Source of the DNA: a virus
Taxonomy: Duplodnaviria > Heunggongvirae > Uroviricota > Caudoviricetes
Length of the DNA stretch: 23,750 bases
Virus record (IMG/VR): IMGVR_UViG_2778261673_000009
Reading direction: 5' to 3' (one strand)
Positions 8,158-23,750 of this stretch are shown one piece after another. The notes beneath the pieces were generated by a model. The model saw only the letters and a list, made by a program, of their open reading frames with translations, did no database searches and was not told the origin of the DNA. The position numbers and the translations under genes were made by a program. Position 1 is the stretch's first letter. Each line of letters starts with the position of its first letter.

Positions 8158-8165
8158 CATGATAT

Positions 8166-8906
8166 CTAGCGTTGCATTTCAGTTACTATGAAATTTTCTT
8201 CTGTAATAGAATTCATTATCTCAAAGTACAATTCTTCAGGTTGAATAAACGCCAACTCTTTGCAAAGGTTGACAATGGTATCACTATAAGTGATACCCAT
8301 CCGAGGATTGAAAAGCTCAAATCTCTTGATGTTTCTTTTGTTTTTTGAGTAAAAGTTTAAAGTGAAATATATTAGCACCTGTCTAAGATCGTAAACACTA
8401 AACTTCCTATCTCCTGATTTTATTTCCACAAGAACATTTGAATAATAAATATCGCCATATGAATTATTTATTACTCCGCATCCATCGAATTGTGGAGACA
8501 CTTCAATTTGGTTTTCCATTCCATATCGAGACAAAATGTTTCTTGCTATTTCCCTTATGGCATTGTACTCAACCATGCTTAAGGGTAGCTTGAAGTTAGA
8601 ACCGTAAGCGAACCGCTGTAGATATTCTTTTGTTTTTTCAAAAACAACCTGAAAATCAGCATTATGGAAGATATCATGTGCTGAAAGAATATTTCTGTCT
8701 AACGAATCATTCTGTATTGCCCTATATAAATTAAATGCGCACTCATTGACAAAGACGTTATTTGACCTATTAGCGCAGTCATCTAGAGGAGGATAAACGT
8801 CCTCGATGAGACTGCCGTTAATGATGCGTATGAAATTATTAGCATTTGGAAGCAATTGATTCCAAAATGAAGTGAATTTTCGAGAAAACGTTAATTCAGA
8901 TATCAT
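8166..8906 (-). CDS. Hypothetical 246-aa protein, partner of the reverse-transcriptase gene; possible PD-(D/E)xK-type nuclease
   Basis: AT-rich ORF whose ATG overlaps the RT stop (ATGA). It contains GDIYYSNVLVEIKSG, that is D-x9-E-x-K. The nuclease reading is motif-level inference only. Confidence 0.6.
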   Translation of the reverse strand: MISELTFSRKFTSFWNQLLPNANNFIRIINGSLIEDVYPPLDDCANRSNNVFVNECAFNLYRAIQNDSLDRNILSAHDIFHNADFQVVFEKTKEYLQRFAYGSNFKLPLSMVEYNAIREIARNILSRYGMENQIEVSPQFDGCGVINNSYGDIYYSNVLVEIKSGDRKFSVYDLRQVLIYFTLNFYSKNKRNIKRFELFNPRMGITYSDTIVNLCKELAFIQPEELYFEIMNSITEENFIVTEMQR

Positions 8907-10531
8907 AGCGCATCCTCAAGATTTCTTGCGGTATGCCTTTTACTTGCCCAATCCCTGTAAATCACCTCTACAAAGTTGAATGTTTTCTTATTATGCTCTC
9001 TCCAGTGCCGTCCTTCATCACCTAAGATGTAACTGGAAACGATCAATAGTCTTCTCTGCAACGGATGCATTGCAGAGAAATTTTTTTTGATATCAGAAAG
9101 CCATGCGTAAGAATTAATTTTTGCCATTGACTGTGTAACTATGTTCTTGACTAAGATGCTTTCTGGATTGTTATTGTATATTTCACTAAGGATTAGGGTG
9201 GATTTTTCTGAATTTTCTTTTGAGAGCATTCGGGCTACATAGGCTAAGTTGAGCTCAGTACTCAAAATATATGAATCTTGTTTAATTAGTGCAGTTATTT
9301 TATCAAGAATAATATCTTTGGTTTCTGTGCTTAATTTTTGCCAGTTGGAGTTAGCTACTTGAATTATAGTTGTAAATATTGGATATAACTCATGCAAGTT
9401 ATTAAACATTACTTTGAAAGCACTACTTATTATTTCATCTGATGTTGCTGAGAATGCCTTTATCAAATGCTTGCTAAAAGATTGGTTAATTTTTGATTTT
9501 TGTAACTCACTACTCAGCATAGCTAACAAGTCAAAATCTTTTAAAGATTCCTTTATCTCTTCATATTCCTCTATCGCATTTGCTGAGTAAGGATCGAATC
9601 TTATAGGAAGACTCATAAATTTAGCCTTCATAGGAGATTCTTCATCTTCATCATTACCATGCAACTTAGCTTTAGTTACTGAAAGGAACTCTTCTTTAGT
9701 AACAATATTGGTTTTTTGTTTCTGTAAAGTTAGCCCTTCATTTTCCATCAGTTTTTTACTAAGCAAAGTTAAAATCTTATGAGCATCCTCTCTAGAGTTA
9801 CAAAAAATAACAAAGTCGTCGACATAACGCTTATAGTTGATTCTATTCATAGACAATAATTTATCAATAGAATCTAGAGCTAGTTCTGCTAATATTCTAG
9901 AGGCAGGACATCCAACTGGTACTCCATATGATTTTGTTTCACTAAATGTCTGTAGTAATTTCTTGATTTTCCCAGAGTAATCTTTATTGGGGTCTACTCT
10001 ATCTAACGCATTTTCTAAACGGTGGTGATAAATACGCGGATAGAAATCTGCTATATCGCATGTAAGTACATACTTTATTTCATCGTTAGAACATTCAGAG
10101 ATACTGTCTTCTTGATATTTTCTCCAAGAGATCTCTTTATCAAAAAGAGAACCATCAGCAAGGTTTGGTTTAAAGCGATATGAATAAACCTGCGTTTTAG
10201 TAGATCTATTCCTTTCAATATCATCAGCGATTTTTAAAACTAACCCAAGAAAAAAAGCATTCCAGAATGGATCAATTTGGGTCGCCCACCTGTAACCATA
10301 ATAACCAATACTTGAAAAGCTATTAATTATGTTTGGTGGAATCTCGATCCTTTTATTTTCAAAGTCATTAAATGTTTGCATTAATGCAGTTTTTACTTTC
10401 TCCTTATCATCTTCAAATAACCGACTTTCAAATGGGTAAGGGAAAATATCTGTATCGCCGTGCTTTATAATATTTTCCAATGCAAGCTCAAAGCAATTTT
10501 CTAGTTTACTACTATCAAACTCGTTACTCAT
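8903..10531 (-). CDS. Reverse-transcriptase-domain protein with a long alpha-helical C-terminal extension (Abi/DRT-like architecture)
   Basis: 542 aa with RT motifs read directly: CDIADFYPRIYHHRL (motif A-like), YGVPVGCPASRILAELAL (motif B-like) and YKRYVDDFVIF (YxDD catalytic motif, encoded near 9811-9822). About 250 C-terminal residues lie beyond the RT core. Strongly AT-rich relative to its neighbours. Confidence 0.85.
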   Translation of the reverse strand: MSNEFDSSKLENCFELALENIIKHGDTDIFPYPFESRLFEDDKEKVKTALMQTFNDFENKRIEIPPNIINSFSSIGYYGYRWATQIDPFWNAFFLGLVLKIADDIERNRSTKTQVYSYRFKPNLADGSLFDKEISWRKYQEDSISECSNDEIKYVLTCDIADFYPRIYHHRLENALDRVDPNKDYSGKIKKLLQTFSETKSYGVPVGCPASRILAELALDSIDKLLSMNRINYKRYVDDFVIFCNSREDAHKILTLLSKKLMENEGLTLQKQKTNIVTKEEFLSVTKAKLHGNDEDEESPMKAKFMSLPIRFDPYSANAIEEYEEIKESLKDFDLLAMLSSELQKSKINQSFSKHLIKAFSATSDEIISSAFKVMFNNLHELYPIFTTIIQVANSNWQKLSTETKDIILDKITALIKQDSYILSTELNLAYVARMLSKENSEKSTLILSEIYNNNPESILVKNIVTQSMAKINSYAWLSDIKKNFSAMHPLQRRLLIVSSYILGDEGRHWREHNKKTFNFVEVIYRDWASKRHTARNLEDAL

Positions 10532-11708
10532 TCACATTCTCCTTAATAAAAATATAATCTGAATACCACTGCATCATATCACGGCGTTTATCAATATATT
10601 GAGCATGATTATACGTACCTCTAATATTATTCTTATCTATATGAGCAAGCTGTATTTCTATCCAAGCCGAATCATATCCTTTTTCGTGGAGGATAGTAGA
10701 TAAGGAATGTCGAAATCCATGACCAGTAAGTTTTCCACCATAACCAATACGCTTGATAACTTGGTTAATACTCGCCTCACTCATAGGCTTGTTCGGATCG
10801 TTCCGCCCCGGAAAAACATAACTATACTTCCCTGTCATCATCTTGAGTTCATTTAGCAAATCTAACGCTTGAGTCGACAAAGGCACAAGGTGTGATCTGC
10901 GCATTTTCATCCTTTCAGCAGGAATTTCCCAAATAGCGTTATCTAAATCAAATTCTGACCATAATGCCGCACGTAATTCGATGGTTCTAACACCTGTAAT
11001 CATGAGCAATTTCGTGGCAATCAGGACAAGCCGACTTCCGGTATATCCGTTTAAGGCGCGAAGAAAATCAGGTATCTCATTAGCCTTTAAGAACGGGAAA
11101 TGATTTGATTGGTGTACATTGAGGGCGCTTGAAAGATCCGCAGCAGGGTTAAACTCAGCCCTTCCAGTAGCAATGGCATAGCGGAAAACTTCTGAGCATC
11201 GCTGCCGAACTTTGCGCATTTTTTCTAATGCACCGCGCTTTTCGATTTTACGCAGCACATTAAGCAGTTCTAGCGGTTTAATCTCTCCCACTGGCCTTGT
11301 TCCCACATAAGGAAAAATGTCGTTCTTAAACGCTTCCATGATGTCTGATGCATATCCCGCCGACCATTTGGTAGACTTCTGTTGATGCCACTCTCTGGCT
11401 ATCTTTTCGAAGGCGTTCTCTGACTCTGTTTGCAGAGCCAGCTTTTGCTCTTTTCGAACCTCACTAGGGTTCTTTCCTTCTGCCACAAGTTTTCGAGCTT
11501 CATCACGACGGGAACGAGCATCAGCAAGAGTGATCGTTGGGTAAACACCAAGCGAGATCATTTTGGGTTTACCGGCATAGCGATAACGAAATCGCCAGCT
11601 TTTACTTCCATTTGGCTCTACAAGTAAAGACAACCCTTGCCCATCCCCAAGTGTATAGGCTTTAGCTTCAGGTTTAGCACGGCGAATCTGCATATCATTT
11701 AGGGGCAT
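10524..11708 (-). CDS. int: P4-family tyrosine integrase
   Basis: 394 aa with a typical P4-type integrase N-terminus (AKPEAKAYTLGDGQGLSLLVEPNGSKSWRFRYRY) and a C-terminal catalytic region (HGFRHSLSTIL...). It is adjacent to the putative att core. The true start may be the second Met, 15 nt downstream. Confidence 0.9.
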   Translation of the reverse strand: MPLNDMQIRRAKPEAKAYTLGDGQGLSLLVEPNGSKSWRFRYRYAGKPKMISLGVYPTITLADARSRRDEARKLVAEGKNPSEVRKEQKLALQTESENAFEKIAREWHQQKSTKWSAGYASDIMEAFKNDIFPYVGTRPVGEIKPLELLNVLRKIEKRGALEKMRKVRQRCSEVFRYAIATGRAEFNPAADLSSALNVHQSNHFPFLKANEIPDFLRALNGYTGSRLVLIATKLLMITGVRTIELRAALWSEFDLDNAIWEIPAERMKMRRSHLVPLSTQALDLLNELKMMTGKYSYVFPGRNDPNKPMSEASINQVIKRIGYGGKLTGHGFRHSLSTILHEKGYDSAWIEIQLAHIDKNNIRGTYNHAQYIDKRRDMMQWYSDYIFIKENVNE

Positions 11709-11872
11709 GTGTATAGAATTCCAAAATCGAACAGGAACATATACATAATCCTATACACATTTAGTACTGGATTCTACTGGAAAGTTATGGACTAATACGA
11801 ACAGTAAAAACAAAAAATCTTTTATAAAACAGTGCGGTTATGGATAAATACGGATGTTTGAAGAAGTGGAGA

Positions 11873-11890
11873 TGGTGCCGATAATAGGAG
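11873..11890. repeat. Putative attachment-site core, junction copy next to int (ATGGTGCCGATAATAGGA)
   Basis: Direct repeat of 546-563, about 165 bp upstream of the int start. The nearby sequence carries TATACACA-type motifs (11712-11760), also seen inside the other end (620-641), as expected for integrase arm sites. Confidence 0.45.
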
Positions 11891-12033
11891 TAAAACACTC
11901 GATTAATCTCGTGTTAATGCCATCACCTACGACTATTACTAATTGATTGAATCTTATAGAAAAATAATCATTTTCTATGCGTCACAATCAATTTTCACAT
12001 TACAAACGCTCCGACACTTTAGCCGGAGATTTT

Positions 12034-13311
12034 ATGAGATACAAGCCTAACCAATACTTAATCTGTGATTCTTACGGTAACTACTATTTAAGGATCACGC
12101 TGCCTGTGTATATGCAGCCCTTTTTTGAAGGAAAAAGGACGTTTGTCAGAAGTCTACACACAAGTAATCTTCGTGTTGCACGTAGAAAGCGTGATCAGAT
12201 TGCAGATGAATACCATTGCTTACGGGAGAGTGTTGCCCCTGTAAACAGCACAATAGAAAACACGCTGGAACTGTTACGCAGTAAGGCTAAATACGCCAAA
12301 ACAGCTACCAGAGTGCAAGATACAGCGTCTTCGTGTCCGTCATTGCTTAAAATTCTTGAAATCTACCTGACAATTAACAGCACGAAGAAGAAGCCAGCCA
12401 CTTTAGCTAAGGCAAGAAAAGCGGTAGAGATGTTTCTCTCCTACCGTAAAAAGCCTGATATTGCATTGCAAGATGTAAGCCGCACCACTGTTACAGGCTG
12501 GATTGAACACATGCAAAAAACTCTTTCACAACAATCAATTGCAAATTATATCAGCCCAATGGCCCAGCTATGGGAGTTAGCTTCATCACGTTACCACGAT
12601 GCGCCAGAAAGGGCGCTCTCCCCCTGGCGAGGGCATAGGCTTGATGTGGCACAAAGTAGAGAGAGCTACGAGGCATTTTCTAACAAAGAGCTATTGCAGG
12701 TGTTGCAAGTATTTTCCGGTAATTCAGCAGAAAACAAAGAAATGACGGCTTTGTGTCTTATCGGTTTATATACAGGTATGCGGATCAATGAGATAGCAAG
12801 TCTCACAATAGACGATGTGAAAGAGATCGAAGGTGTGCTGTGTTTTGAAATCACACAGGGAAAGACGAAAGCAGCGGCACGTGTTGTGCCTGTACATAGC
12901 CTTATCACTCCGTTGGTGTTGTCGCTGCGTGAAAAGCCTCACAATGGCTTTTTGTTCTATCACGCCAGCATTACAGAGCGTGCTGATGGTAAACGTTCCA
13001 CGTGGCATACGCAGAGATTTACAAGAGCTAAACGAAAGGCTTTAGGGGAAAAGGGAACAGAAAGGAAGGTGTTTCATTCTCTGAGACACGGAGTAGCACA
13101 GCTTCTTGATCGAAATCAAATTCCAGAAGACAGGATCGCCCTTCTCCTGGGCCATACACGCGGCAATACAGAAACATTCCGCACATATAGCAAAAATGCA
13201 GCTTCTCCAGTAGAGCTTAAAAAATATATTGAGCTTTTACGCTACCCTGAAATAGAGAAAGGCTTATCAATCAATAAAAAATCAAATTTAAGGCGTAAAA
13301 CAACGCCATAG
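12034..13311 (+). CDS. Tyrosine recombinase / phage-type integrase of a second element
   Basis: Catalytic motifs visible: TGMRINEI, HSLRHGVAQLL and LLGHTRGNTETFRTYS. The track's longest ORF begins at 11977, but the ATG at 12034 has a GGAG Shine-Dalgarno 6 nt upstream and is preferred. Confidence 0.8.
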   Translation: MRYKPNQYLICDSYGNYYLRITLPVYMQPFFEGKRTFVRSLHTSNLRVARRKRDQIADEYHCLRESVAPVNSTIENTLELLRSKAKYAKTATRVQDTASSCPSLLKILEIYLTINSTKKKPATLAKARKAVEMFLSYRKKPDIALQDVSRTTVTGWIEHMQKTLSQQSIANYISPMAQLWELASSRYHDAPERALSPWRGHRLDVAQSRESYEAFSNKELLQVLQVFSGNSAENKEMTALCLIGLYTGMRINEIASLTIDDVKEIEGVLCFEITQGKTKAAARVVPVHSLITPLVLSLREKPHNGFLFYHASITERADGKRSTWHTQRFTRAKRKALGEKGTERKVFHSLRHGVAQLLDRNQIPEDRIALLLGHTRGNTETFRTYSKNAASPVELKKYIELLRYPEIEKGLSINKKSNLRRKTTP

Positions 13312-13392
13312 ACGTAATAAGGAGGCTTCAACATAGATTGGTAGCCTCTTTTATAATTACATCGTTACAGAGCGTTTCATAGGCGTTTAAGG

Positions 13393-14070
13393 CTATTGTT
13401 TAAATACTGGTGTTACAACGTCTTGCCCTGGGCTTTTTTGATTTTTCTGTTCTGTTGTATTTACCTGCATTTTAACCTGTCCCCCTACAGATTTATTTGG
13501 TGCTGTTTTTACAGCAATAGCATTAGTGGTGGCCTTAGAGACAAGACGAATTTGCTCAAAATCAAGAGTAAACAATATGCTTTCGCTTGCTTCTTCTTCG
13601 TAAGACATGCCAACTAACACAACGTTGTCATAATTTTTTAACTCAGTGACAAGTAGGAAAGGTTGGCGACTGTCCATCAACTGATTTAGGTATTCAAGCA
13701 TAAGCATACGTCGATTGCCGTTAATTCCAGCATTCTTAATCATATCAGGATTGAGCTTCAATACGGTTTCAGAGATACGCCCTTGTAATGTGAACTTGTT
13801 ATTCCGTATTTGAACATGATCACTAACTTCTGATCCTGATTCGACAGCATAGCTTGTAACGTCTGCATTTCTGCTAACTCTCGTCGATTCCACGCTATCA
13901 AATGATAATGCCTGGTAGTCATTGTAAGCAGCATTTGCACCACTGCCGAGATTAGAGGTAATGATCGCAAAGCCGTTACCCCCTTTAGTTGTTCTACCGT
14001 TGCTATCGTTGCTTGTGCTGTTGATTTTCGCCTCAGTCGGGCGACCAATGGTTAACGGACCCATTGCCAT
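13393..14070 (-). CDS. Hypothetical 225-aa protein, last gene of the structural-type operon
   Basis: ORF with AAGGA about 9 nt upstream of the ATG, co-directional with the upstream genes. No recognisable motif. Confidence 0.55.
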   Translation of the reverse strand: MAMGPLTIGRPTEAKINSTSNDSNGRTTKGGNGFAIITSNLGSGANAAYNDYQALSFDSVESTRVSRNADVTSYAVESGSEVSDHVQIRNNKFTLQGRISETVLKLNPDMIKNAGINGNRRMLMLEYLNQLMDSRQPFLLVTELKNYDNVVLVGMSYEEEASESILFTLDFEQIRLVSKATTNAIAVKTAPNKSVGGQVKMQVNTTEQKNQKSPGQDVVTPVFKQ

Positions 14071-14117
14071 AATTTGTAATCCTTATTTAAGGGGGCTAAA
14101 CAGCCCCACAGTGATGA

Positions 14118-15959
14118 TTAATAGGTTGACCCGCCTGACATAACACCCAGCGTTAATAGCTTGCTAAACTCAGCGGAGGATGCCTTTGATTTGAAGTCGA
14201 TAAATTCGCTCAATCGTCCGGTGTCTGATTCGATAGTTAGCGGCACTTCTGCATTTACTTGTAATTCTGGATTGAAGTTAATAACAGGTGCAAAGGTGTA
14301 AGAAGGAGCCTTGAAAGCTTGTTGTGCTGCACTCTGTTTCAGATTTGCAATGTTTTGTCCTTCGAGACTGTATTGATTTACAGCCTGCGCCCCACCTACC
14401 GTTTCTTCTGGCATAAACCAGCTTTTAATAGTGTTAACCAGGGAATTGCTGTTATCTGGCTTAGTTGTTCCGGTGCCAGCGCCTTTATATTGATCAGGAG
14501 TGAGATTAGAAAGATTCTGCTTCATTCCTTCGTTAGATAGTGGCGGTGCATCACCTAAATTCTTCTGAATAGCTGCCGTCTTCTCGTCGTTTTTCATCAG
14601 CCAGTTGATTGTTTTCATTACGGCGTTAACCAATCCGCCGATAGCCTCGCCTAATTTGGTAAACATTGGCAGCATTGCAACCATGCTCTTTTTAAACTCT
14701 TCAATCACTTTCGGATCAAGAGATTTCATAAAGCCATCAACAAAGGCGATCCCTTGTGAGTCAGAAAGCCCACTAAGTGCATTATTCAGTTCACGGAATT
14801 TAATAACGCTTTCCTGTTGTGCCTGTGTTACCCAGCGCCCTGATTCTCGTTGTTCTCGTGCTGATTGTTCCACTTCTTTAGCGGAGCGTGTCCAGTATTT
14901 AGAGGTGAGCATCAAATCATCAGCCAGATCTTCCAGACGACTACCGATTTGTGCATCTGAATAGCCTTTAGCTACCATTCCCTGAACTGCTTTACTAACC
15001 AGACCAGCCGGATTATCAGCAAAGTCTTTTAGATCCTTTTTAGTTAGGAATCCTTCATTCATTAAAGTATTGATGCCGCTATCGCCGCCCTTCCATTCGC
15101 CTTTCCCTGTTTTCTTATCGACTACATATTCAGCCTCATCATAGCTTTTGGTTGCACGCTCACGCACATCTTTCATCTGATCGAGATACTTACGTTTACC
15201 TTGATCCCCCATCATTGAATCAACGCCGTTTTTATACGCCCATTGCTCAATATTGTTCATCTGGTTAACGTCTACACCGCCCAGCTTCGCACGGCTATAC
15301 AATTCTCCCAGCGTTTCAGCACTGGCAAAGCTGTTAGTAACAAATTCAGAGGCTTTGCTCATAGCCATATACGTAGCGCCAGCGCCTAAGCCACCCAGCA
15401 TAACAGCCGCAGCACCGCCGCCAATACTCCCGCTACCCTTAACAGGTGCATAGGCTTTAGCGTGAGCGTTACGATTGCCATTAATCTTACGTTGTTGCTG
15501 TTGTAGGCGTTTCATTTGGCTATTCATACGTGCCAGACTAATAGCGCCTCTTTCATATTGGAGGGCAATTTCTCTAGCCTGTGCAATAGCTTTATATTGT
15601 TCCGCTACAGAAAGACGGTGCATTGCACTAATGCTTGATCCAACGTCTAAAAGCTTTAAGTCTGCCTTCTCTTTGCGTGCTGCCAGGGCTTTTTGTTCTC
15701 TTGCAACTACACGTTGAGCGGCTAATTGTGCTTTAGCATTAGCTTTATCAGCCTGTGCTTGCTTTTTAGCAATATCGTCTACGTCTTTTTTTGCTTTAGC
15801 GGTTGATTGTTTATGTGTCTTAACACGCAATTCTATATCTTTCACAGCCGCCATTTGTTTACGAAGTTTTTCTACTTCTGCTTTTGCTTTCTCTAATGAT
15901 GGTCGATCAACCTGGAAGGTGACAACGTTTGATAAGCGGCTGACGGTAAGGTCTAACAT
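14118..15959 (-). CDS. 613-aa protein with N-terminal coiled-coil region and Gly-rich hydrophobic segment (tape-measure-, ejection- or scaffold-like)
   Basis: The N-terminal 150 aa are rich in K/A/E/Q heptad-like sequence, followed by GSGSIGGGAAAVMLGGLGAGATYMAM and then a long polar region. The functional class is inferred from composition only. Confidence 0.65.
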   Translation of the reverse strand: MLDLTVSRLSNVVTFQVDRPSLEKAKAEVEKLRKQMAAVKDIELRVKTHKQSTAKAKKDVDDIAKKQAQADKANAKAQLAAQRVVAREQKALAARKEKADLKLLDVGSSISAMHRLSVAEQYKAIAQAREIALQYERGAISLARMNSQMKRLQQQQRKINGNRNAHAKAYAPVKGSGSIGGGAAAVMLGGLGAGATYMAMSKASEFVTNSFASAETLGELYSRAKLGGVDVNQMNNIEQWAYKNGVDSMMGDQGKRKYLDQMKDVRERATKSYDEAEYVVDKKTGKGEWKGGDSGINTLMNEGFLTKKDLKDFADNPAGLVSKAVQGMVAKGYSDAQIGSRLEDLADDLMLTSKYWTRSAKEVEQSAREQRESGRWVTQAQQESVIKFRELNNALSGLSDSQGIAFVDGFMKSLDPKVIEEFKKSMVAMLPMFTKLGEAIGGLVNAVMKTINWLMKNDEKTAAIQKNLGDAPPLSNEGMKQNLSNLTPDQYKGAGTGTTKPDNSNSLVNTIKSWFMPEETVGGAQAVNQYSLEGQNIANLKQSAAQQAFKAPSYTFAPVINFNPELQVNAEVPLTIESDTGRLSEFIDFKSKASSAEFSKLLTLGVMSGGSTY

Positions 15960-15993
15960 ACTGATTGTTTCCCTGTATTATGATTGTTGTTTG

Positions 15994-16191
15994 TTATTGT
16001 TTTTTAGAACAATAATATTGGATTGCTTCGAAAGTGCTGCACCCGGTCTGAAACACACGCTGCCGCACATTATTTGCATCAATTGAAAGCATTCTGCATA
16101 AGGCACTGACATTGATTATTGAGTCATCGCTAATAGCTGCCAGTTCTTTTACAGATTTAAGAATTAATGCCTGTGAATTTTCTGTGTTCAT
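15994..16191 (-). CDS. Small hypothetical protein (65 aa)
   Basis: ORF with a weak ribosome-binding site between the capsid-like gene and the 613-aa gene. Confidence 0.3.
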   Translation of the reverse strand: MNTENSQALILKSVKELAAISDDSIINVSALCRMLSIDANNVRQRVFQTGCSTFEAIQYYCSKKQ

Positions 16192-16355
16192 TGGTTTTCT
16201 CTCACATATATATTTTTATTTGGATTTGTAGACAGTAGAAAAACAAAAAGGGCAAAGAGATTCGTTACTGTATTTGCGCCTACAGGTTAGTTAATCTCCT
16301 TACCCTTATTGCCCCCCGATTATTTCCAGACGTAGGGGAACGTCTTTAACACTTT

Positions 16356-17384
16356 TTACGCTACTGTGATCTGCACAGAGAAGCCAACACCGTGGTTAAC
16401 CACAAGCGAGCTATTCTCGGTCACTACGTGCACTGCGTCGCCGCGATTCGATTCGAAAGCATAGCTGTAATACTCTTTAGCGCCTTGAGACAGCAGATCG
16501 AAGGAACTGGAAGGCGCGCCATAGATAGCTTGGTAAACACCTCCACCCTTAGCGAATTTAGGCACGGCTACAGCGTCAGCGGTCATATGTGCCAGCAGCA
16601 GCGGATCAGTCACTTTGATCAGATCAATGTTAGTTCCTGGAATGGTGAAAGTAGTTACGCCAGGCAGCAGAGAACGCACATTAAACACCACGTTTGCATC
16701 GTCTACAGGGCTTGCATATTGGAACGCATTGACCATGCCAACGCTGTAACGAATAGCGTTGAATGCCGCAGGTTTACAGAACACAACAACACGCTCAATG
16801 GTTGCAGCCTGGCTTTGTGCCTTAGCAATCATATCCGTATGCATCTGATCAAATTGCTTGAATACGGTCATTGTGTTGGTGCTGGATGCGTCAACGGTTG
16901 CAGTCATTGGAGACACACCGAACAGAGTGCTGTAATCGATCAGAACATCGTCAGTTTTCGGCGTATGTGTCTTGCCAGAGAACAGAGAAGCCGCGAGGAT
17001 GCTTTCTTTAGTGCGCTGGAATGCAACATTGTGTTTAGCGATATATTCCGCATACAGATCCGGCAGTGTTTCTTCAATAGAGCTTCCGGCTTTGCGTTTG
17101 CCTTGCACGTCCTGCGGTTTGATCAGGTCTTCACGCAGGAAGTAAGGGATTTCAATCAGCCATTCTTCCCCGTTCTCACGCTTAGTAACGTTATGCTCAG
17201 AGCTAAAACGGCTTGTAGGATGGTTGAACAGAGATTCATTGCTCTCGATAAGCTGGGAAACAGCCACTTTGTGACTTTCTACAGGCACAGGATCAGTAAA
17301 ATCCAGAGTAGACAGTAGGTAATTGCGTGAGTCGTTTAATTCGAACAGTGGAGCAAGATCAACCACTTCATTTCCGATAATCAT
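16356..17384 (-). CDS. Putative major capsid protein, lambda gpE-like
   Basis: 342 aa, essentially the length of lambda E-family capsid proteins. C-terminus ...GFSVQITVA resembles the E-family C-terminal motif as recalled. Preceded by a 124-aa gene, like the lambda D-E pair. GAAGGA lies 10 nt upstream of the ATG. Confidence 0.5.
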   Translation of the reverse strand: MIIGNEVVDLAPLFELNDSRNYLLSTLDFTDPVPVESHKVAVSQLIESNESLFNHPTSRFSSEHNVTKRENGEEWLIEIPYFLREDLIKPQDVQGKRKAGSSIEETLPDLYAEYIAKHNVAFQRTKESILAASLFSGKTHTPKTDDVLIDYSTLFGVSPMTATVDASSTNTMTVFKQFDQMHTDMIAKAQSQAATIERVVVFCKPAAFNAIRYSVGMVNAFQYASPVDDANVVFNVRSLLPGVTTFTIPGTNIDLIKVTDPLLLAHMTADAVAVPKFAKGGGVYQAIYGAPSSSFDLLSQGAKEYYSYAFESNRGDAVHVVTENSSLVVNHGVGFSVQITVA

Positions 17385-17400
17385 TATTATTTATTCCTTC

Positions 17401-17775
17401 TTAAGATGTGAAAACAGAGTGGAAGCCTTCAAGCTGGAAGCCTTTAGCAGCGAGAGCTGCAATAGCAGCTTCTTTTACAGCGCCTTCGGCATTCAGGGCA
17501 TCAGCTTTGATGCAAACGAGTCCGGCATTAGCACGAAGCACGTTAACTGTTTTATTTGAATCAGCAGTTACGAAGTCAGACACAACGACAAGAACATCAG
17601 CGCCGCTAACATATTTAGCGCCGGATGAATCAATGAGGTCGCCGCACGTTACATCTTGTGCAAGTGCTGCAAATTTTTTGCTTTCTACAGCCGCGTAAGG
17701 GTCGGTTGCATAGCTCACTACGTCAGTGATGCTTTTACGATGTGGGAAAACATCGCTTAATTTTAAAATAGCCAT
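17401..17775 (-). CDS. Putative head-decoration-like protein (124 aa)
   Basis: Small Ala/Val/Gly-rich protein immediately upstream of the capsid-like gene. Strong AAGGA ribosome-binding site. Start overlaps the stop of the upstream gene (TAATG). Function assigned by position and size only. Confidence 0.4.
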   Translation of the reverse strand: MAILKLSDVFPHRKSITDVVSYATDPYAAVESKKFAALAQDVTCGDLIDSSGAKYVSGADVLVVVSDFVTADSNKTVNVLRANAGLVCIKADALNAEGAVKEAAIAALAAKGFQLEGFHSVFTS

Positions 17776-17984
17776 TATTTTTCCTTAGATTGTTTGATTT
17801 GTTGAGCTTTAGCATTAATCAAATCTTGGTGAGATGGTTTATTGCTGTCAGCCTTATAAAGACGTTCACACTGTTTCTTTAATTCTGTAGGAGTGATGCC
17901 AAGCGCGTAGGCTGTAGCATTCAACACATCCTCAGTTAGTGTTAACTTTTCATTGCCATATTTCAGGATAATTTCTTGTTTCAT
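17775..17984 (-). CDS. Small hypothetical protein (69 aa), first gene of the structural-type operon
   Basis: ORF translationally coupled (TAATG) to the 124-aa gene. Weak ribosome-binding site. Confidence 0.45.
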   Translation of the reverse strand: MKQEIILKYGNEKLTLTEDVLNATAYALGITPTELKKQCERLYKADSNKPSHQDLINAKAQQIKQSKEK

Positions 17985-18013
17985 AAAATAACGATTCCGT
18001 TATGTTCCGAGTA

Positions 18014-18062
18014 ATAAAAAGCCCCAGGCTATAAGAGGTTCAATCAACAATAGCAAGGGGCT
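18014..18062 (-). terminator. Terminator-like hairpin preceding the structural-type operon
   Basis: GCCCC(AG)GCTAT...ATAGC(AA)GGGGC stem-loop followed on the minus strand by a T run (plus-strand AAAAA at 18016-18020). It sits between the early-type genes and the capsid-like genes. Confidence 0.3.
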
Positions 18063-18990
18063 TATTTATTTTGTATCGGGCAAAATACATATTGTGATAA
18101 GTCAACTTTGAGGAGGTTTAACGTTATCTCTAAGAATACTTTTATAAATACGCTTAGAGATATGTTAAGGGTGAATAACAGGACCGCAGGAGAAATTGGC
18201 TCTTAGGAGGGGCCAACCCTTTGGAATCTACGATCCTGCTATTCGATGCGGGGGCTAAACCGCTGCCTGTTTTTGCTGTGGATGCAACAAAGTAAGGCTT
18301 TAAGGAATCACTATTCCAATTCTAATCTACTCACAGATCAAATTTTAATAGGATTAACTACACCAACAGTAATCTACCGTTTCAGAAAATCGTTTTTACA
18401 ACCAAAGCTTATAGATCCGCATTCTATAAAACCCGTTTTGCTATCAATATTTCCAAAGTTTATTGCACCATTCTTAGCTAAACTCTCTCTACTTGCGGCT
18501 AACGCTATGCAGATGATAGTTTTTTGACAACAACTTAATAGATTATTCTGTTACTAACTTCCGTCATTAAATAAGAGTTTAATGATGTTAGTAAATAGTT
18601 ATAAAATATAACTATCAGTGTAAGGCTCTTTAATGTTTTCGGACAAAATAAGGAGCTTTAGGATAAGCATAGATGAAAAATAAGAGCGGGAAGGGCAAGG
18701 AGATAACACCTACCCGCTTTTATCAAAATTAAGCACAATGCCTAACAACATTCATCAACACAACGTAGAAACAATCAACAATCAAAGAGGGAGTTATGAT
18801 TATTCTAAAACTTCTTGAGAGATGGAAGGTAATATTTGTTAGAGGTTAATGCCACTCAACCTTTGAGGCTATCACCTTCCATATGCAGGGATTTATGACA
18901 ATAGAAGGATTAACGCCAACTAAAATCTTTTTATCTACCCCTAAAATTATTATATAACAAAATCATTATAAATGCAAATGATTTTCATTA

Positions 18991-19299
18991 TCATTTAGAG
19001 AAAATAGCACTTTTTGCTAAATCATCTACTAATTGCTGAATCTCTTCACTTGCAACCTTTAACGTGGTGGCGATGTCTGTGATGATTTGATTACACTGTT
19101 TTGCATCGTGCTCAGATAGCTTTAAATAGCTCACCAGAGAGATAAAATCGTCAAGGCTTACATTCACCTTCATTAAGCTAATAACGCATTGAGAGAGCGT
19201 GTAATCGCATAAATCTGAATAGGCTTGATTTATTCTTGTTTGTAGTGAGATAGTCAGATCTAAAAGTTGTTCCATTGCATTGCTAATATCTTCTTCCAT
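18991..19299 (-). CDS. Small hypothetical protein (102 aa)
   Basis: ORF whose ATG overlaps the stop of the upstream 67-aa gene (TAATG). Confidence 0.5.
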   Translation of the reverse strand: MEEDISNAMEQLLDLTISLQTRINQAYSDLCDYTLSQCVISLMKVNVSLDDFISLVSYLKLSEHDAKQCNQIITDIATTLKVASEEIQQLVDDLAKSAIFSK

Positions 19300-19502
19300 T
19301 ATGCGTATTCTCCTTGTAATGCATCATTAATCATATTCAATACGATGTTAAAAGGTGTCTTGAGCGTCAGCACTTCATCACGGTAACGATCTAATGCTTC
19401 GTAGTCTTCTGTTTCTTTTGCCAGCCGGATTAACTCAGCATAGTTTTTTGCATCAGACAGGATCATCTGAAATAATTGTGTTTCTTGAATATAGCCAATC
19501 AT
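19299..19502 (-). CDS. Small hypothetical protein (67 aa)
   Basis: ORF with AAGGA 8 nt upstream of the ATG. Confidence 0.45.
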   Translation of the reverse strand: MIGYIQETQLFQMILSDAKNYAELIRLAKETEDYEALDRYRDEVLTLKTPFNIVLNMINDALQGEYA

Positions 19503-19560
19503 TATTTTTCCTTTTTTTGAATATTTTCATTGGGCGCTTATACATACGCCCATCATTTTA

Positions 19561-19944
19561 TTAGTTAGAACGTTTGTTAGAAGCTAATGTATCTTCTAAA
19601 TGAGCCATCAGATCGACTTCCGATGCACCACCTACACAATTATTGAAAGCGTTAAATCCCAAAAAATGATGATAGGAGCTAAACCCTAAAAGCTGCCAAC
19701 GTTTCAGAGTGCCATCAGAAATGATAGTTTGTTTTCTTGTTCTTGGGCGAAAGTAAACGCCTGGCATTGACTGGATTATTTCTAATTCTTCATCACTTAA
19801 TTCAGGGGATTCTGTTTCAAGAATAAAGATTATCTCTTCCCCTGGAATTTCGTTATTGGTATGTGTCGGTGGACGTTGTCTTGTTGAATTGAAATTACTG
19901 TTTTTTTCAATACGTTTTAAGTTGTTCTTCTTCTTTCTTCCCAT
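19561..19944 (-). CDS. Hypothetical protein (127 aa)
   Basis: ORF with GAGGG 5 nt upstream of the ATG. Basic N-terminus (MGRKKKNNLKR). Confidence 0.5.
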   Translation of the reverse strand: MGRKKKNNLKRIEKNSNFNSTRQRPPTHTNNEIPGEEIIFILETESPELSDEELEIIQSMPGVYFRPRTRKQTIISDGTLKRWQLLGFSSYHHFLGFNAFNNCVGGASEVDLMAHLEDTLASNKRSN

Positions 19945-20040
19945 TTTCCCTCTTTTTATGTGGATTATAAAAACTGAATGCCATAGTTACGATGAATATC
20001 GCCATAAATGCATTTGCCATATGTATTGCCCGATCTGTTG

Positions 20041-20310
20041 TTATTGATTGTTTGTGATAAACAATTCAAAATCTTTGTTTAATTTCAAAAGACGAAATGT
20101 AGTGCTGTTAATCCCTTCATAATCCAGCACACCGAACGATGTAAAATGATTTAACCAATGATTTACGTGTTGTGCGCTGTAGCCGCCTAAACTACAAAAG
20201 CTAACCACTGTCGGCGGTGAGAACTCTATTTCCAAAATAGCTTTTAAAATGTTGTATCCGCTTTCAGTTATTTCAATAGTTTTGTTTCCTGTAGTGATGT
20301 TATAAGTCAT
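20041..20310 (-). CDS. Hypothetical protein (89 aa)
   Basis: ORF with AAGGAG 6 nt upstream of the ATG. Confidence 0.5.
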   Translation of the reverse strand: MTYNITTGNKTIEITESGYNILKAILEIEFSPPTVVSFCSLGGYSAQHVNHWLNHFTSFGVLDYEGINSTTFRLLKLNKDFELFITNNQ

Positions 20311-20319
20311 TTATTCTCC

Positions 20320-20889
20320 TTAGAATGGTATTGAATCGTATATTTCACTTTTTTCTCTTAGAGATATTATCAGATCGTGAAAAGCCTGTTTCTCAAGATA
20401 GATATTCTTTGAATCTAATGCACGTTTTACAAAATCTTCTGTTTCTTCGTGCGGTGGTTTCTTCTTATCAAGGGAAAGAAGCCAAGTAAAAATTTCGGGC
20501 CGCTCAGGGAACTCTGATTCCTGTGTTTCTTCTTCAACGATGATTTCGGAAACATTCAATATTTCATTAGATTCGTCTTCTTTCTCAGAAGGATCAGGTA
20601 GTGATGATTCTCCTTTTGGAATATCAAGCACTCGATAAAGGTTAGAGCTTCCTGGTCGTGCATCTTTTATAATTAATCCCATTTCGAGCAATTTCTTAAC
20701 CCTTTCTTCTGCTGCTCTTGGTGTTATGCCAAAAACATCGCCTATCTTAGCGTAAGAGGGAAATGCACGATCAAACCCTCTCAAATAGCAGTAAAGGTTT
20801 TTAGCACTATCTGTAAATTTATGCCCGTTTACTTGGCTTATTTTTAGAATCCACATAGGAACTTTTACAAATTGTTCTTCATTAATCAT
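20320..20889 (-). CDS. Putative replication initiator / replisome-organiser with N-terminal winged-helix domain
   Basis: Likely start is the ATG at 20889 (AAGGAG 7 nt upstream; the track ORF begins at a GTG at 20913). N-terminal pattern FVKVPMWILK...SAKNLYCYLRGF...FPSYAKIGDVFGITPRAAEERVKKLLEMGLI is typical of phage and island replication-initiator DNA-binding domains. Acidic C-terminal half. Confidence 0.55.
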   Translation of the reverse strand: MINEEQFVKVPMWILKISQVNGHKFTDSAKNLYCYLRGFDRAFPSYAKIGDVFGITPRAAEERVKKLLEMGLIIKDARPGSSNLYRVLDIPKGESSLPDPSEKEDESNEILNVSEIIVEEETQESEFPERPEIFTWLLSLDKKKPPHEETEDFVKRALDSKNIYLEKQAFHDLIISLREKSEIYDSIPF

Positions 20890-20942
20890 TAAAAATCTCC
20901 TTGATGTAATCACGCTCTACGGCGCTACTATGGTGATAAAAA

Positions 20943-21113
20943 TCACTTGCTTTTGTTTGAGAGTGTTTCAGCCTCTCTTTTCAACATATCAAGAATGTAA
21001 TCTGTAACAGTGATACGTTTACTTCTGGCTTCTTTAAACAACACCTGAAATACTTCATCAGGAATATGAAAGCAAGTGCGTGGTTGTCTTTTCTTTTCTG
21101 TAGTTTCGCTCAT
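20943..21113 (-). CDS. Small 56-aa protein, possible ribbon-helix-helix regulator
   Basis: Not in the ORF track (under 60 aa). ATG at 21113 with GGAG 6-7 nt upstream. Translation MSETTEKKRQPRTCFHIPDEVFQVLFKEARSKRITVTDYILDMLKRE has a strand-helix-helix look. Confidence 0.4.
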   Translation of the reverse strand: MSETTEKKRQPRTCFHIPDEVFQVLFKEARSKRITVTDYILDMLKREAETLSNKSK

Positions 21114-21134
21114 AGTTTTCTCCTTCTCCTGTTA

Positions 21135-21317
21135 TTATTCTTTCTCTGCTTCTGCCTTACGCAGTTCATCAATAATTTTTAGTGCATCGTCAAAACATTT
21201 TTCACGCTCTGGATAACCACAGCGTCGCGCTGTGTTCCTGTTCATCCTTACTTTAAAACGATTAATCTCACCACGTTTCCAGGCTTCAACTACATCTTGA
21301 GAAGTGAAATACTTCAC
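21135..21317 (-). CDS. Small 60-aa protein, first gene of the leftward early-type operon (GTG start)
   Basis: Start codon is GTG at 21317, with AGGAGG 7 nt upstream. Basic small protein. Confidence 0.5.
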   Translation of the reverse strand: MKYFTSQDVVEAWKRGEINRFKVRMNRNTARRCGYPEREKCFDDALKIIDELRKAEAEKE

Positions 21318-21486
21318 TAATTAACCTCCTATTCTATTTGGTTAAAAGAAAAAACACCTTGCAAGCCTTGTTGGGCTTCAAAGTGCGGTGCATTGGTTTA
21401 ATTACTTAGAGGATAAGAATGTTTTCTGTCCCTAATATTACTTTACCACGACTAAAAGCTTTTGTCAACCCCTGGCCATAAAAATA

Positions 21487-21511
21487 TTGATCATTTTCAG
21501 TGTGTTATAAT
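21487..21511 (+). promoter_or_regulatory. Candidate extended -10 promoter (TGTTATAAT) reading rightward into the ORF-poor region
   Basis: TGT-TATAAT at 21503-21511 with TTGATC 13 nt upstream. The upstream hexamer is too close for a standard -35, so the call rests on the extended -10 alone. Confidence 0.3.
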
Positions 21512-21618
21512 TTTTCTTAGCAATTCGTGCTCTTACGAGTGTTCCTATTCTTCCTTATTCTCTAAAACGCTCTAAAACGCGTTCTAACGAGGTATTTGAT
21601 AAAAACAATACATTCCCT

Positions 21619-21656
21619 TATGTAGAGGTTGTTTAGCTCGCCAGAGGCTTATTTAA
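21619..21656. repeat. Repeated element, copy 1 (GTTTAGCTCGCC-N3-GGCTT-ATTTAAG-GGG)
   Basis: GTTTAGCTCGCCAGAGGCTTATTTAAGGGG recurs at 21797-21832. The tail AAGGGGCTTATTT..TTGTAT also recurs at 18052-18076. Confidence 0.5.
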
Positions 21657-21796
21657 GGGGCTTATTTTGTATTTGTTAGGTATATGAAAAGGAGATGATA
21701 GATAAAATCTAATTTCAGACATCTTATAAAATACCTGTAAAGCTCTCAGAAGCTCTGTAACGAGCTAATCTATTACCGCTAAGTGTTTCCCTGCCT

Positions 21797-21832
21797 TATA
21801 TACGTTTAGCTCGCCTACGGCTTGATTTAAGC
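21797..21832. repeat. Repeated element, copy 2
   Basis: GTTTAGCTCGCCTACGGCTTGATTTAAGCGG, a direct repeat of 21619-21656 with few mismatches. Confidence 0.5.
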
Positions 21833-22301
21833 GGTAGAATCTTATTTAACCTTCAACTACTAAAACCATTCTTTCTTTTTTGTTTGTTGTTGGTTGTTGT
21901 CTGTGTCTATGTGCTAACATCGCTAACGCGTAGCACACAAGGTTATTGCACAAGTAAATTTCAATCGTTAGATGGTAGTTAGTTAATTATCGTTCTGCGC
22001 ACAGCGCAAGACTATTTAGCCTTACGCAAGCCGTAGGCTATTTGCACATAGTAGATTACATATTCGTTGTGAGCGGCATTAGCGAACATAGATCTACTAA
22101 CTAACATCAACAAACAAAAACTATGTGTTATGACAAGCAGTCTAACGACTAACACTCTAACTTGTGCAAGGTTCTGGCGAATGCCAATAGATTAAGGGAT
22201 AGTCAAGGACTCCCCTAACGGGTACCCCTATAATTATTCTTTAAAGATAAAAGAATTTATAAAAGATAATTTAATTGTAGTTTGATAGTTGATCTAATAG
22301 G

Positions 22302-22435
22302 TAACAAAATTCTGTAGGGGTGGCTAACAGTTTTCTGTGGGGGTGTATAACATAATTCTGTTAGGGTTGGGGTAACAGTTTTCTGTTAGGGTGCATATTT
22401 CTTTAAAAGTTAAGGATAACAGAATTCTGTGGGGG
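22302..22435. repeat. Iteron array: five 19-bp direct repeats TAACA-N3-TTCTGT-N-GGG(G), each with an internal ACAG-N4-CTGT dyad
   Basis: Units start at 22302, 22325, 22348, 22373 and 22417, giving spacings of 23, 23, 25 and 44 bp. The unit at 22417 contains the perfect palindrome ACAGAATTCTGT. Putative origin of the second element. Confidence 0.6.
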
Positions 22436-23262
22436 TAGTTCACAGTGACCTACCGTTACATCCATTTATCACATAACATCTGTGCAATGATCTTCTAAAA
22501 GTGTTTCTTGCTACCAAAATTAAACATCTAAAACAGGCTTAAATTCAAGATTAATTGATGATTAATCCTTATGTAATTCCATACTAAAAATTCAATGAAA
22601 AGTAGCTTAAAAGTGCAATTCTTACTTTCTTCACTTTTACATCACTTTCGCAAAGCCTTGTGTAATGCGGCTTACAGAGCACTATCAGAAATTGTTGATT
22701 AAAAATCAATCTATTATTTGTCGAACAAGTTTCTTTCACGTGTTGAAAATTTATGTTTAAATTTGCTTTCAATCTTTAATGTGCAATCACTATCAACATA
22801 AAAATAAAAACCTTCTATTATATTTCATAGCATACAAAAGTCAATAGAAGCCCTCTCGTGCTCCTACGTAAAAAATCCACCACTTTTCCCCTGATACATC
22901 AACTCAAGGCGTTCTATGTGTTCCTTAGTGCATATTACGATTATTATGTTAAATGGATTTTGGCCTATATTTTGACCTGCACCCGCATAAACACTGGTTT
23001 CATCGCTTACAGCCCTTGTGAGACGTGGTGCTGTTTCTAGCATCTGATCCGACATAAAACCGATCATTCTCGTGTTTAGTGAAAGTTTAGTGAGAGACAT
23101 TACAGAAAGGCTTTCTGTGTAATGATTTAATAGGTAAAAACGATGTTGATTACGCAAGAAAATTCCTTGCTGATATTTGGGGATTCTGGATTTTCCAGAT
23201 CGGGGGGCGCTAAAAATCGCGTTAAGCACCTCTCGCAATCTAGCCATAAGGGAAGGGATATA

Positions 23263-23305
23263 GGTATTTAGATGTATTTATAGCTATTTATGGCTATTTA
23301 TTTTT
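23263..23305. repeat. Four tandem copies of a roughly 10-bp AT-rich unit (nnTATTTAnn)
   Basis: GTATTTAGA TGTATTTATA GCTATTTATG GCTATTTATT, at helical-repeat spacing. A nearby pair CCCTTAAATCCCC / GCCTTAAATACCCC lies at about 23393-23430. Confidence 0.4.
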
Positions 23306-23596
23306 TATTTACCTTTATTAAAAAATAACCTTATAAATCAATAAGATACAGAGCTATCTGTTTATATTTTAATCAATTAAATCAAGTTTAATACCCTTAA
23401 ATCCCCTGAAAATAGCCTTAAATACCCCAATAATTAATTTTAAGGTTTTCCGTGTTCTCTTCTGCATTATGAAAATGCAAAATAAGGCACAAAACAAGCT
23501 CACAGACGCATTAAACACACATCACCTATGCATCCCTATACCAAGCAATGAAAACAGCGTTAGAATGCGTCCTGTTGCGTTCTGGAGATTTTCAGA

Positions 23597-23750
23597 AATC
23601 CTCTCTAAGCCATTTCAACTCACTAAGGAGTTTTCTTTCTTCGTTCTCTCGTTGCTTTCGCTCTAGCCAGGCTTTTCCTTCTGGCGTAGACAGGAACTTA
23701 CGAGCGTGAATCTTGCGGTTATTCCGTTTGATAGCTGCAATGTTTTTCAT
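23597..23750 (-). CDS. Small ORF starting at or beyond the window edge (possibly partial)
   Basis: The minus-strand ATG sits at the last three bases of the window and reads MKNIAAIKRNNRKIHARKFLSTPEGKAWLERKQ... to a stop near 23597. Any upstream signal is outside the window. Confidence 0.25.

Follow-up and report, generated by a model that had tools for sequence, protein, structure and literature searches.

We describe an integrative element of ~12.5 kb that begins at position 11892 of a 23,750-nt stretch of DNA (IMG/VR virus record IMGVR_UViG_2778261673_000009; hereafter the window), which represents the island site at the tRNA-Thr gene thrW in Escherichia coli. The element is probably an integrative phage satellite of an undescribed family that parasitises Stephanstirmvirinae (Justusliebigvirus and Phapecoctavirus), virulent myoviruses of 145-150 kb such as phi92 and phAPEC8. 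We favour a satellite because the architecture and size of the element are conserved, its genes are under purifying selection, it carries a predicted Rep and iterons of its own, and it contains a copy of a boundary sequence from the proposed helper. The att sites, gene content, homologies, conservation, selection, co-variation of iterons and Rep, and helper-site copy were all observed in silico. We found no description of this satellite family in the full-text literature, our coverage of which was incomplete, so that an earlier description is possible.

A second element in tandem at thrW

A previous annotation made from the letters alone (the sequence-only reading) had placed an integrase-bearing second element in tandem with a P4-like satellite, and three att copies bear this out. 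The 16-bp core TGCCGATAATAGGAGT occurs once in the window as an exact sequence, at 11876-11891, where the P4-like satellite meets the second element (chance expectation 0.02), and it is the 3′ end of the tRNA-Thr gene thrW as read from a related complete genome (CAU16175, L001), in which the same 16-mer lies on both sides of the second element with one copy inside the tRNA. A degenerate copy, GGTGCGATAATAGGAAT, lies at ~539-556 on the far side of the P4-like element. Because att copies bound both, the P4-like satellite and the second element are tandem occupants of thrW. The second element spans 11892 to ~610 bp past the window end, taking the distance to the tRNA from L001, and totals ~12.5 kb. 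The earlier reading was thus right that the window ends inside the element, but with only ~610 bp lying outside, the gene content is essentially complete and the class, which that reading had left open, can be resolved. The element region alone (11700-23750) has matches in 874 of 5426 complete E. coli genomes. Its features are as follows.

11977-13311, plus strand: tyrosine integrase (PF00589, E 1.4e-17; DUF6538, E 3.6e-09; SAM-like; phrog_1)
13393-14070, minus strand: tail-tube initiator, a Dit-like baseplate protein, 225 aa (PF21821, E 1.7e-27)
14118-15959, minus strand: tape measure protein homologue, 613 aa (phrog_16051, E 5.5e-32)
15994-16191, minus strand: 65-aa protein; a 62-67 aa open reading frame (ORF) lies between the capsid and tape measure genes in every member
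16356-17384, minus strand: major capsid protein, 342 aa, lambda E / HK97-fold type (PF03864, Phage_cap_E, E 3.4e-18)
17401-17775, minus strand: 124-aa probable capsid decoration (cement) protein (position and weak fold matches)
17775-17984, minus strand: 69-aa gene, first of the structural operon; a 66-81 aa ORF holds this position in all members
17985-18990, minus strand: AT-rich non-coding spacer of ~1 kb with a terminator-like hairpin, just upstream of the structural operon
18991-20310, minus strand: four small genes (102, 67, 127 and 89 aa), no Pfam, PHROG or PADLOC matches
20320-20913, minus strand: winged-helix Rep-like protein, 197 aa (phrog_270/678, HTH_36)
20943-21317, minus strand: two small regulators, of 56 aa (weakly Arc- or ribbon-helix-helix-like; weak phrog_582 Arc-like match) and 60 aa
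22302-22446, plus strand: five iterons TAACAGnnTTCTGTnGGGGT at ~23-bp spacing, a putative replication origin
23172-23239, plus strand: copy of the terminal-repeat boundary site of the proposed helper, a putative pac-like terminase site
23592-23750, minus strand: 52-aa ORF nearest the tRNA, conserved in L001 and L013 (96-100% identity)

The integrase gene starts 86 bp after the core, close to the ~90 bp estimated previously, at the tRNA-distal end of the element and transcribed into it, a position and orientation kept in all family members. We considered whether it might be IntF of CP4-6, which occupies the same thrW position in K-12, and rejected this, as the two share 24% identity in the catalytic region only. 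The leftward gene set of the sequence-only reading, with its replication-initiator-like gene, was recovered, and within it the structural genes form a tight operon on the minus strand that runs in the order 69, 124, 342, 65, 613 and 225 aa. We could not detect a terminase, portal, protease, sheath, tube, baseplate wedge, fibre or lysis match among the ORFs of the element in Pfam or PHROGs, and the largest ORFs besides the integrase, tape measure and capsid genes encode 225 and 197 aa. The earlier claims that no ORF resembles a terminase or portal, and that the content fits neither a complete phage nor the P4 pattern, therefore agree with what we observed: terminase, portal, lysis and P4 hallmark genes are all absent from the element. 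Extending the sequence through related genomes revealed no terminase, portal or further tail genes, and the full element seen in L001 adds none of the missing virion genes. The element is thus a discrete integrative unit with its own recombinase and att sites and an incomplete set of virion genes.

Structural genes and their phage relatives

The 342-aa protein had been called E-like from the letters alone, an assignment that held in profile searches, while the 613-aa and 225-aa genes, listed before without a function, turned out to encode a tape measure protein and a Dit-like tail-tube initiator. Against a comparison set of 50,697 phage records, the best and nearly all matches of these three proteins fell in Stephanstirmvirinae (Phapecoctavirus and Justusliebigvirus), and no other phage group in the set matched better; the capsid protein matches Pseudomonas PB1-like phages too. 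Identities to Stephanstirmvirinae proteins are as follows.

Capsid protein: 25% over the full length, to Phapecoctavirus major head proteins
Tape measure protein: 24-31%
Tube initiator: 53-54%

The best matches in the PDB are all to phi92 proteins, namely gp124 for the capsid protein (E 4e-9), gp134 for the tape measure protein (E 8.9e-22) and gp135 for the tube initiator (E 2e-54), and the Dit-like fold of the last is labelled tube initiator in two other solved tails (including 9cuy_K). The tape measure protein, at 613 aa versus 659-662 aa in the phages, aligns with that of phAPEC8 from residue 1, and the tube initiator is 54% identical to phAPEC8 gp103, whose gene directly follows the tape measure gene. 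The structural genes of phAPEC8 run from decoration (gp115) and capsid (gp114) through neck, sheath, tube and chaperone genes to the tape measure (gp104) and gp103, and the element retains only the first two and the last two of this series in the same relative order. The two modules thus have homologous capsid, tape measure, tube initiator and probably decoration genes, and share the boundary sequence described below. They differ in that the phage genes are spread over ~9 kb of a 148-kb virulent genome, with the neck, sheath, tube and chaperone genes between them, whereas the element holds four adjacent genes, at 24-54% protein identity, in a 12.5-kb integrative replicon.

Synteny and weak fold matches suggest that the 124-aa protein is probably a capsid decoration protein. 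Its gene always lies immediately upstream of the capsid gene, as does that of the ‘head decoration’ protein gp115 in phAPEC8, and a Foldseek search with its AlphaFold2 model (predicted local distance difference test score, pLDDT, of 63) gave as its best matches, each of them weak (E 0.07-0.5), a ‘Head decoration protein’ and the chains of ~123 aa that decorate the capsids of Sf14, Sf11 and Bas63. BLAST detected no sequence similarity between the 124-aa protein and gp115. The 65-aa proteins likewise hold a conserved position without similarity detectable by BLAST, either to one another or to phAPEC8 gp105, and the counterpart of the 69-aa gene in one distant relative matches PF26210 (Phage_phiTE_211). 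Elsewhere in the family the resemblance to these phages can be closer, as in a second E. coli lineage, whose tube initiator shares 58-61% identity with Justusliebigvirus, and in a Klebsiella element, whose tape measure protein shares 40-42% with Phapecoctavirus. Several GenBank records named ‘Campylobacter phage’ (MG0656xx) behaved in these searches as Stephanstirmvirinae coliphage genomes, and their host labels are doubtful.

The AT-rich spacer upstream of the operon presumably controls late expression. It contains no conserved ORF and has no Rfam match, and a hairpin-bearing gap of 0.35-0.7 kb occupies the equivalent place in other members; aligning the regions upstream of the structural operon across genera revealed only the recurring hairpin and AT-rich boxes, with no usable promoter motif. 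A promoter and terminator scan returned nothing exceeding shuffled expectation, and Rfam gave zero matches on 11700-23750 at E up to 0.1.

Conservation across Enterobacterales

The capsid protein family is confined to Enterobacterales chromosomes, where its members are 39-99% identical. The capsid gene and its 124-aa neighbour occur as a pair in 394 of 5426 complete E. coli genomes (~7%), always on the chromosome and in up to 3 copies per genome, and the gene order around them is constant in Escherichia, Klebsiella pneumoniae, Enterobacter, Citrobacter, Serratia and the second E. coli lineage. Reading towards the integrase, this common order comprises a small recombinase, a non-coding region, two small regulators, Rep, 3-4 small genes and a gap, followed by genes of 66-74 and 119-126 aa, the capsid gene (342-345 aa), a gene of 62-67 aa, the tape measure gene (603-629 aa) and an optional tube initiator gene, and it closes with the integrase on the opposite strand. 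The two small regulators are 36-68% identical across Klebsiella, Enterobacter and E. coli variants, and one of the four small genes, that of 127 aa within 18991-20310, is kept family-wide as judged by tblastn synteny; its AlphaFold2 model (pLDDT 54, predicted TM-score 0.29) was too poor for use. Element sizes, set in six related loci by flanking direct repeats of 24-52 bp (16 bp here), range from 12.3 to 14.3 kb, and four insertion targets are used: tRNA-Thr, tRNA-Gly(CCC), tRNA-Leu(CAA) and a LysR-family gene. Further capsid homologues were found among species representatives of Buttiauxella, Kluyvera and Scandinavium, and a profile search added a Yersinia-like copy disrupted by an insertion sequence (IS) and a shorter variant without a tape measure protein.

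The sequence-only reading had offered a capsid-encoding satellite and a degraded prophage as alternatives, and it is here that they part, the comparative evidence siding with the former. A degraded prophage, descended from a complete temperate phage through loss of the terminase, the portal and most of the tail genes, would explain why phage-type genes sit next to an integrase at a tRNA hotspot where other strains have cryptic prophages (CP4-6 in K-12; Sp1 and Sp2 in O157 Sakai), why the window copy lacks the resolvase of its relatives and why some copies are IS-disrupted. We nevertheless regard decay as very improbable. The same reduced complement of genes, in one order and one size range, is found again in several genera at protein identities of 39-74%, and the ratio of nonsynonymous to synonymous substitution rates (dN/dS) lies between 0.05 and 0.20 in the genes for the integrase, capsid protein, 124-aa protein, tape measure protein and tube initiator (0.11-0.18 for the capsid gene and 0.2 for the tape measure gene), a range that holds both between 98%-identical copies and between 60-74%-identical ones. 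We found no frameshifts in the structural genes. Shared content and size across genera, combined with low dN/dS, indicate that the copies did not arise by independent decay, and the idiosyncratic losses, pseudogenes and relaxed selection of a decaying prophage were not observed. Moreover, the related phages are virulent, no temperate relatives were found in the phage database, and the capsid family is set apart by a gap, with at least 39% identity inside it against at most 31% to any phage capsid protein. Sp1 and Sp2 of O157 Sakai were themselves considered as members of the family and rejected, being a different lambda-like remnant and a P4-like element.

One distant variant (L104; GCA_034737255.1, 3400-13300) has genes for a 109-aa protein, the capsid protein and a 67-aa protein beside a DUF6538 integrase and lacks both tape measure and tube initiator genes, suggesting that the capsid pair is the family core and that the tail genes are accessory. 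The integrase of another member (L013) is 94-95% identical to that of the window, yet this element is inserted in a LysR-family gene beside the scpA operon, and its 52-bp direct repeat (3054-3105 and 15390-15441) shares only GATAATA with the thrW core, so that the integrase is either lax in its choice of target or redirected by a few residue changes. A 98%-identical capsid gene was also present on a 9.4-kb contig (L106; JAEWTL010000083.1) of a metagenome-assembled genome labelled ‘Bacillota bacterium’, which is probably mis-binned.

A predicted replication module and a candidate phage counter-nuclease

The element appears to have its own replication module, made up of Rep and the five iterons. 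Rep matches the replication initiation families phrog_270/678 (E 1e-8 to 1e-5) and HTH_36, with a probable true start at Met9 (position 20889). The five-iteron array is also present in L001, L013 and a Citrobacter element (L011), which have the same type of Rep N-terminal domain, and is absent from Klebsiella and Enterobacter elements (L003, L009) that have another Rep, so the type of N-terminal domain co-varies with the iteron set. The ~2.3 kb between the two small regulators and the 52-aa ORF, within which the iterons lie, is largely non-coding; a 127-aa ORF at 22864-23247 that overlaps the boundary site has no homologues and is probably not a gene.

A 355-bp part of the Rep gene is 99% identical to Phapecoctavirus Mt1B1_P17, which reflects very recent genetic contact between the element and a phage of the helper type. 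In that phage the sequence belongs to QNJ49226 (L002, 3328-4314), a 328-aa protein whose first 105 residues are identical to the Rep N-terminus at 104/105 positions. Beyond residue 105 follow a second winged helix-turn-helix and a C-terminal domain with sub-threshold MUG113/T5orf172 matches; homologues of this domain in phages carry annotations as homing or GIY-YIG endonucleases. The fusion of Rep and nuclease-like domains occurs in only ~6 phage records, and related fusions are found in phages BI-EHEC and muut. In ICP1, the Odn protein joins a DNA-binding domain like that of the RepA of PLE, the ICP1 satellite, to a T5orf172 nuclease and cleaves the PLE origin (PMC8263062). By analogy, QNJ49226 is a candidate origin-directed nuclease against the satellite, and the fusion suggests antagonism between phage and satellite.

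A copy of the terminal-repeat boundary of the proposed helper

A sensitive nucleotide search with the regulatory half of the element returned a short non-coding match in 50-odd Stephanstirmvirinae genomes. In phi92 this match covers 318-363, and because the left direct terminal repeat (DTR) is annotated at 1-343, it straddles the inner boundary of the repeat. Window positions 23199-23238 are identical to phi92 318-357 at 39/40 positions, the 40-mer reading ATCGGGGGGCGCT, then A or G, then AAAATCGCGTTA up to the repeat end and AGCACCTCTCGCAA beyond it, which places the equivalent of the phi92 DTR end between 23224 and 23225. More widely, a two-part block consisting of GATATTT, 37-38 nt and TCGCGTTAA is common to phi92, Citrobacter phage Tr1 and Klebsiella phage phi1_175008, in whose record it lies 291-368 bp from the start; in the window copy the gap is 38 nt, and GCACC... 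follows across the equivalent of the repeat end. A shuffled window is expected to contain the two-part pattern 0.02 times. In E. coli element variants with capsid genes of only ~72% nucleotide identity the 40-mer has 0 mismatches, making it the best conserved segment among these diverged variants. The Enterobacter elements carry a diverged copy of the block at the equivalent place. The closest sequenced relative, L001, lacks the phi92-type site and has instead an 83-bp block that is 81% identical to the Phapecoctavirus equivalent, which in the phages lies 273-357 bp from the genome ends, twice per record. The two site types, which match the subfamily's two coliphage genera, indicate that the right-end module is swapped between variants. 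Its position and conservation lead us to propose that the block at 23172-23239 is a putative copy of the recognition or cleavage site of the terminase of these DTR phages. We found no copy of the left boundary of the phi92 DTR in the element.

These data bear on whether the element belongs to a different, still unsequenced helper and owes its likeness to Stephanstirmvirinae to shared ancestry of myovirus modules plus one or two recombinations. Such an origin would account for the low identity of the capsid protein to that subfamily (25%), for the DTR-like site not being found in Klebsiella, Citrobacter and Serratia members and for the one distant variant that is entirely without a tape measure protein. 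It would not account for a site 39-40/40 identical to phi92 that is the best conserved segment among diverged E. coli variants, for two site types that match the two E. coli genera of the subfamily or for 355 bp at 99% nucleotide identity with a Phapecoctavirus, and no phage group in the comparison set matches better. Another helper is thus quite unlikely, and we retain Stephanstirmvirinae as the probable one.

The tRNA-proximal module of the element is mosaic (window 22707-23170 compared with L001 25892-27208 and L013 4313-5214). The window and L017 have no resolvase and a phi92-type site, L013 has a resolvase and a phi92-type site, L001, L018 and L019 have a resolvase and a Phapecoctavirus-type site, and the Klebsiella and Enterobacter members have a short tyrosine recombinase (~190 aa) in place of the resolvase.

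Proposed life cycle

We propose that the element, placed at the tRNA-Thr 3′ end by its own tyrosine integrase, would excise upon helper infection, and that the winged-helix Rep would then drive its replication from the five-iteron origin. Expression of the compact late operon would yield the capsid protein, the probable decoration protein, the tape measure protein and the tail-tube initiator, and the helper would supply the portal, terminase, prohead protease or scaffold, neck, sheath, tube, baseplate, fibres and lysis. The helper terminase might recognise and cut satellite DNA at the boundary-site copy (23172-23239), and the DNA would be packaged in shells of the satellite capsid protein, presumably small, as they would hold 12.5 kb rather than ~150 kb; the conserved size of 12-14 kb fits such a packaging constraint. 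The satellite tape measure protein and tube initiator would then nucleate tails. Alternatively, this pair may alter tail or ejection properties or interfere with helper tails.

Several points weigh against this proposal. The life cycle, including induction, packaging and transfer, is proposed from the genes, and the terminase site from position and conservation. We found no free circular or linear form of 12-14 kb in IMG/VR or metagenome contigs, where all copies end in chromosomal flanks; one Logan contig of 12,344 bp (L014) was considered as a free form and rejected, its ends being a k-mer assembly break inside the 52-bp att repeat. With a capsid protein only 25% identical to that of the helper and no portal or recognisable scaffold, co-assembly with the helper portal is assumed. 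The role of the tail genes is the weakest step: we know of no satellite that encodes a tape measure protein, and hence of no precedent for needing one, and within the family the tube initiator is optional and one distant variant has no tape measure protein. The boundary site was not found in the Klebsiella, Citrobacter and Serratia elements examined, and the window copy lacks the small resolvase found in most relatives.

Some of the same evidence could be read as a domesticated anti-phage island, in which the capsid, tape measure and tube initiator homologues spoil Stephanstirmvirinae assembly as poisons or decoys and the DTR-site copy titrates or misdirects terminase, giving immunity without packaging or transfer of its own. 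The element does encode divergent copies (24-54%) of exactly the proteins that nucleate heads and tails, no packaged form was seen in public contigs, and satellites normally interfere with their helpers as a side effect. An island that only conferred immunity would need neither an integrase and intact att sites (at four targets) nor a replicon of Rep and iterons, nor would its size have to stay at 12-14 kb; that some genomes hold multiple copies and that the hosts are widely spread points to active mobility. PADLOC matched no defence model within the element. We therefore consider a purely defensive island unlikely, although it is compatible with part of the data, and the satellite and interference readings can coexist, as they do in known satellites.

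Relationship to known satellites

Among known systems, by analogy, the element is most like a mix of phage-inducible chromosomal islands of the capsid-forming kind (cf-PICIs), with which it shares an own capsid, and the PICI-like elements (PLEs) of Vibrio cholerae, with which it shares a virulent myovirus as apparent helper, a modular Rep-ori unit and a counter-nuclease. Like cf-PICIs (e.g. the EcCIEDL933 type), it is an Enterobacteriaceae island of ~12-15 kb that carries an integrase together with a replication module and an HK97-fold capsid protein of its own, and it cannot make a virion alone. Unlike them, it has no portal, protease, head-tail adaptor/connector or terminase genes, lacks AlpA and primase and is linked to virulent rather than temperate helpers; and whereas cf-PICIs lack tail genes, which are ‘forbidden’ in the SatelliteFinder rule for them, and take only tails from their helper, it encodes a tape measure protein and tube initiator. 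Nor is it a classical PICI, since no AlpA, primase, TerS, Cpm or Ppi match was found in the element.

The likeness to PLEs lies in a large virulent myovirus as apparent helper (ICP1 in the case of PLE), in a Rep-ori module that is modular and swappable and in a phage of the helper type that carries a chimera of a satellite Rep domain with a T5orf172/GIY-YIG-type nuclease, as ICP1 does in Odn. Homology at the sequence level is absent: the recombinase of PLE is a large serine enzyme and its initiator is RepA_N, whereas the element, found in Enterobacterales hosts, has an HTH_36-type Rep and a tyrosine integrase. PLE also has no capsid or tail genes of its own and instead remodels the ICP1 coat protein via the scaffold TcaP. 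P4-like satellites are similar in size and tRNA integration, and resemble the element in its presumed dependence on a myovirus helper and its putative copy of a helper packaging site, P4 carrying the cos site of P2. They redirect the capsid protein of the helper, whereas the element encodes its own, and Psu, Delta, Sid, the alpha primase-helicase, epsilon and AlpA, none of which was found in 11892-23750, are all present in the neighbouring element.

We therefore regard the element with moderate confidence as representing a new family of phage satellite. With confidence only slightly better than even, we further suggest that it is the founding member of a new Enterobacterales satellite family that would be the first to combine tail-assembly proteins with capsid and decoration proteins of its own, leaving portal and terminase to the helper, the first for large virulent phi92/phAPEC8-type coliphages and the first packaged via a copied helper DTR boundary, engaged in a PLE/ICP1-style arms race with an Odn-like nuclease built from the satellite Rep domain. 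If so, Proteobacteria would gain a fifth well-defined family of satellites, one that ~7% of complete E. coli genomes carry and that also occurs in Klebsiella, Enterobacter and Citrobacter, and the family would offer a tractable E. coli counterpart of the Vibrio PLE/ICP1 system, combining a virulent-phage satellite with a candidate phage counter-weapon. Current satellite detectors exclude such elements by design, because tail genes are taken as proof of a phage. Phapecoctavirus and Justusliebigvirus are common candidates for phage therapy, and a resident satellite could cut their yield or spread host DNA. The element also raises the structural question of how a foreign capsid protein and tape measure protein could be grafted onto the portal and baseplate of another virus, and the conserved block marks the probable terminase site of the DTR-type Stephanstirmvirinae.

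The P4-like neighbour and the left part of the window

The remainder of the window is organised as follows.

1-535: yagP (LysR-family gene), 3′ part
~539-556: degenerate att copy, far side of the P4-like element
~557-11875: P4-like satellite
8166-8906, minus strand: PDDEXK nuclease partner of Drt8 (PADLOC, E 5.5e-69)
8903-10531, minus strand: Drt8 reverse transcriptase (PADLOC, E 5e-166)
10524-11708: integrase of the P4-like satellite
11876-11891: att core, junction of the P4-like satellite and the second element

The neighbour is a true P4-like satellite, with the alpha primase-helicase, DUF5375, epsilon/Derepression, AlpA, Delta, Psu and Sid. Its outermost att copy (within 533-556) differs from the core by one deletion and one substitution, and given this degeneracy precise excision of the P4-like element may no longer be possible. 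The psu-int hotspot (8166-10531, minus strand) holds the DRT8 defence pair, at a GC content of 0.33-0.36 compared with ~0.6 in the P4 core. In Citrobacter freundii (L011/L012, 13967-21032), we observed the same divergent integrase-integrase junction with a P4-like satellite as at 10524-13311 of the window, in this case at tRNA-Leu(CAA), indicating that the two satellite types share att sites and repeatedly stack in tandem.

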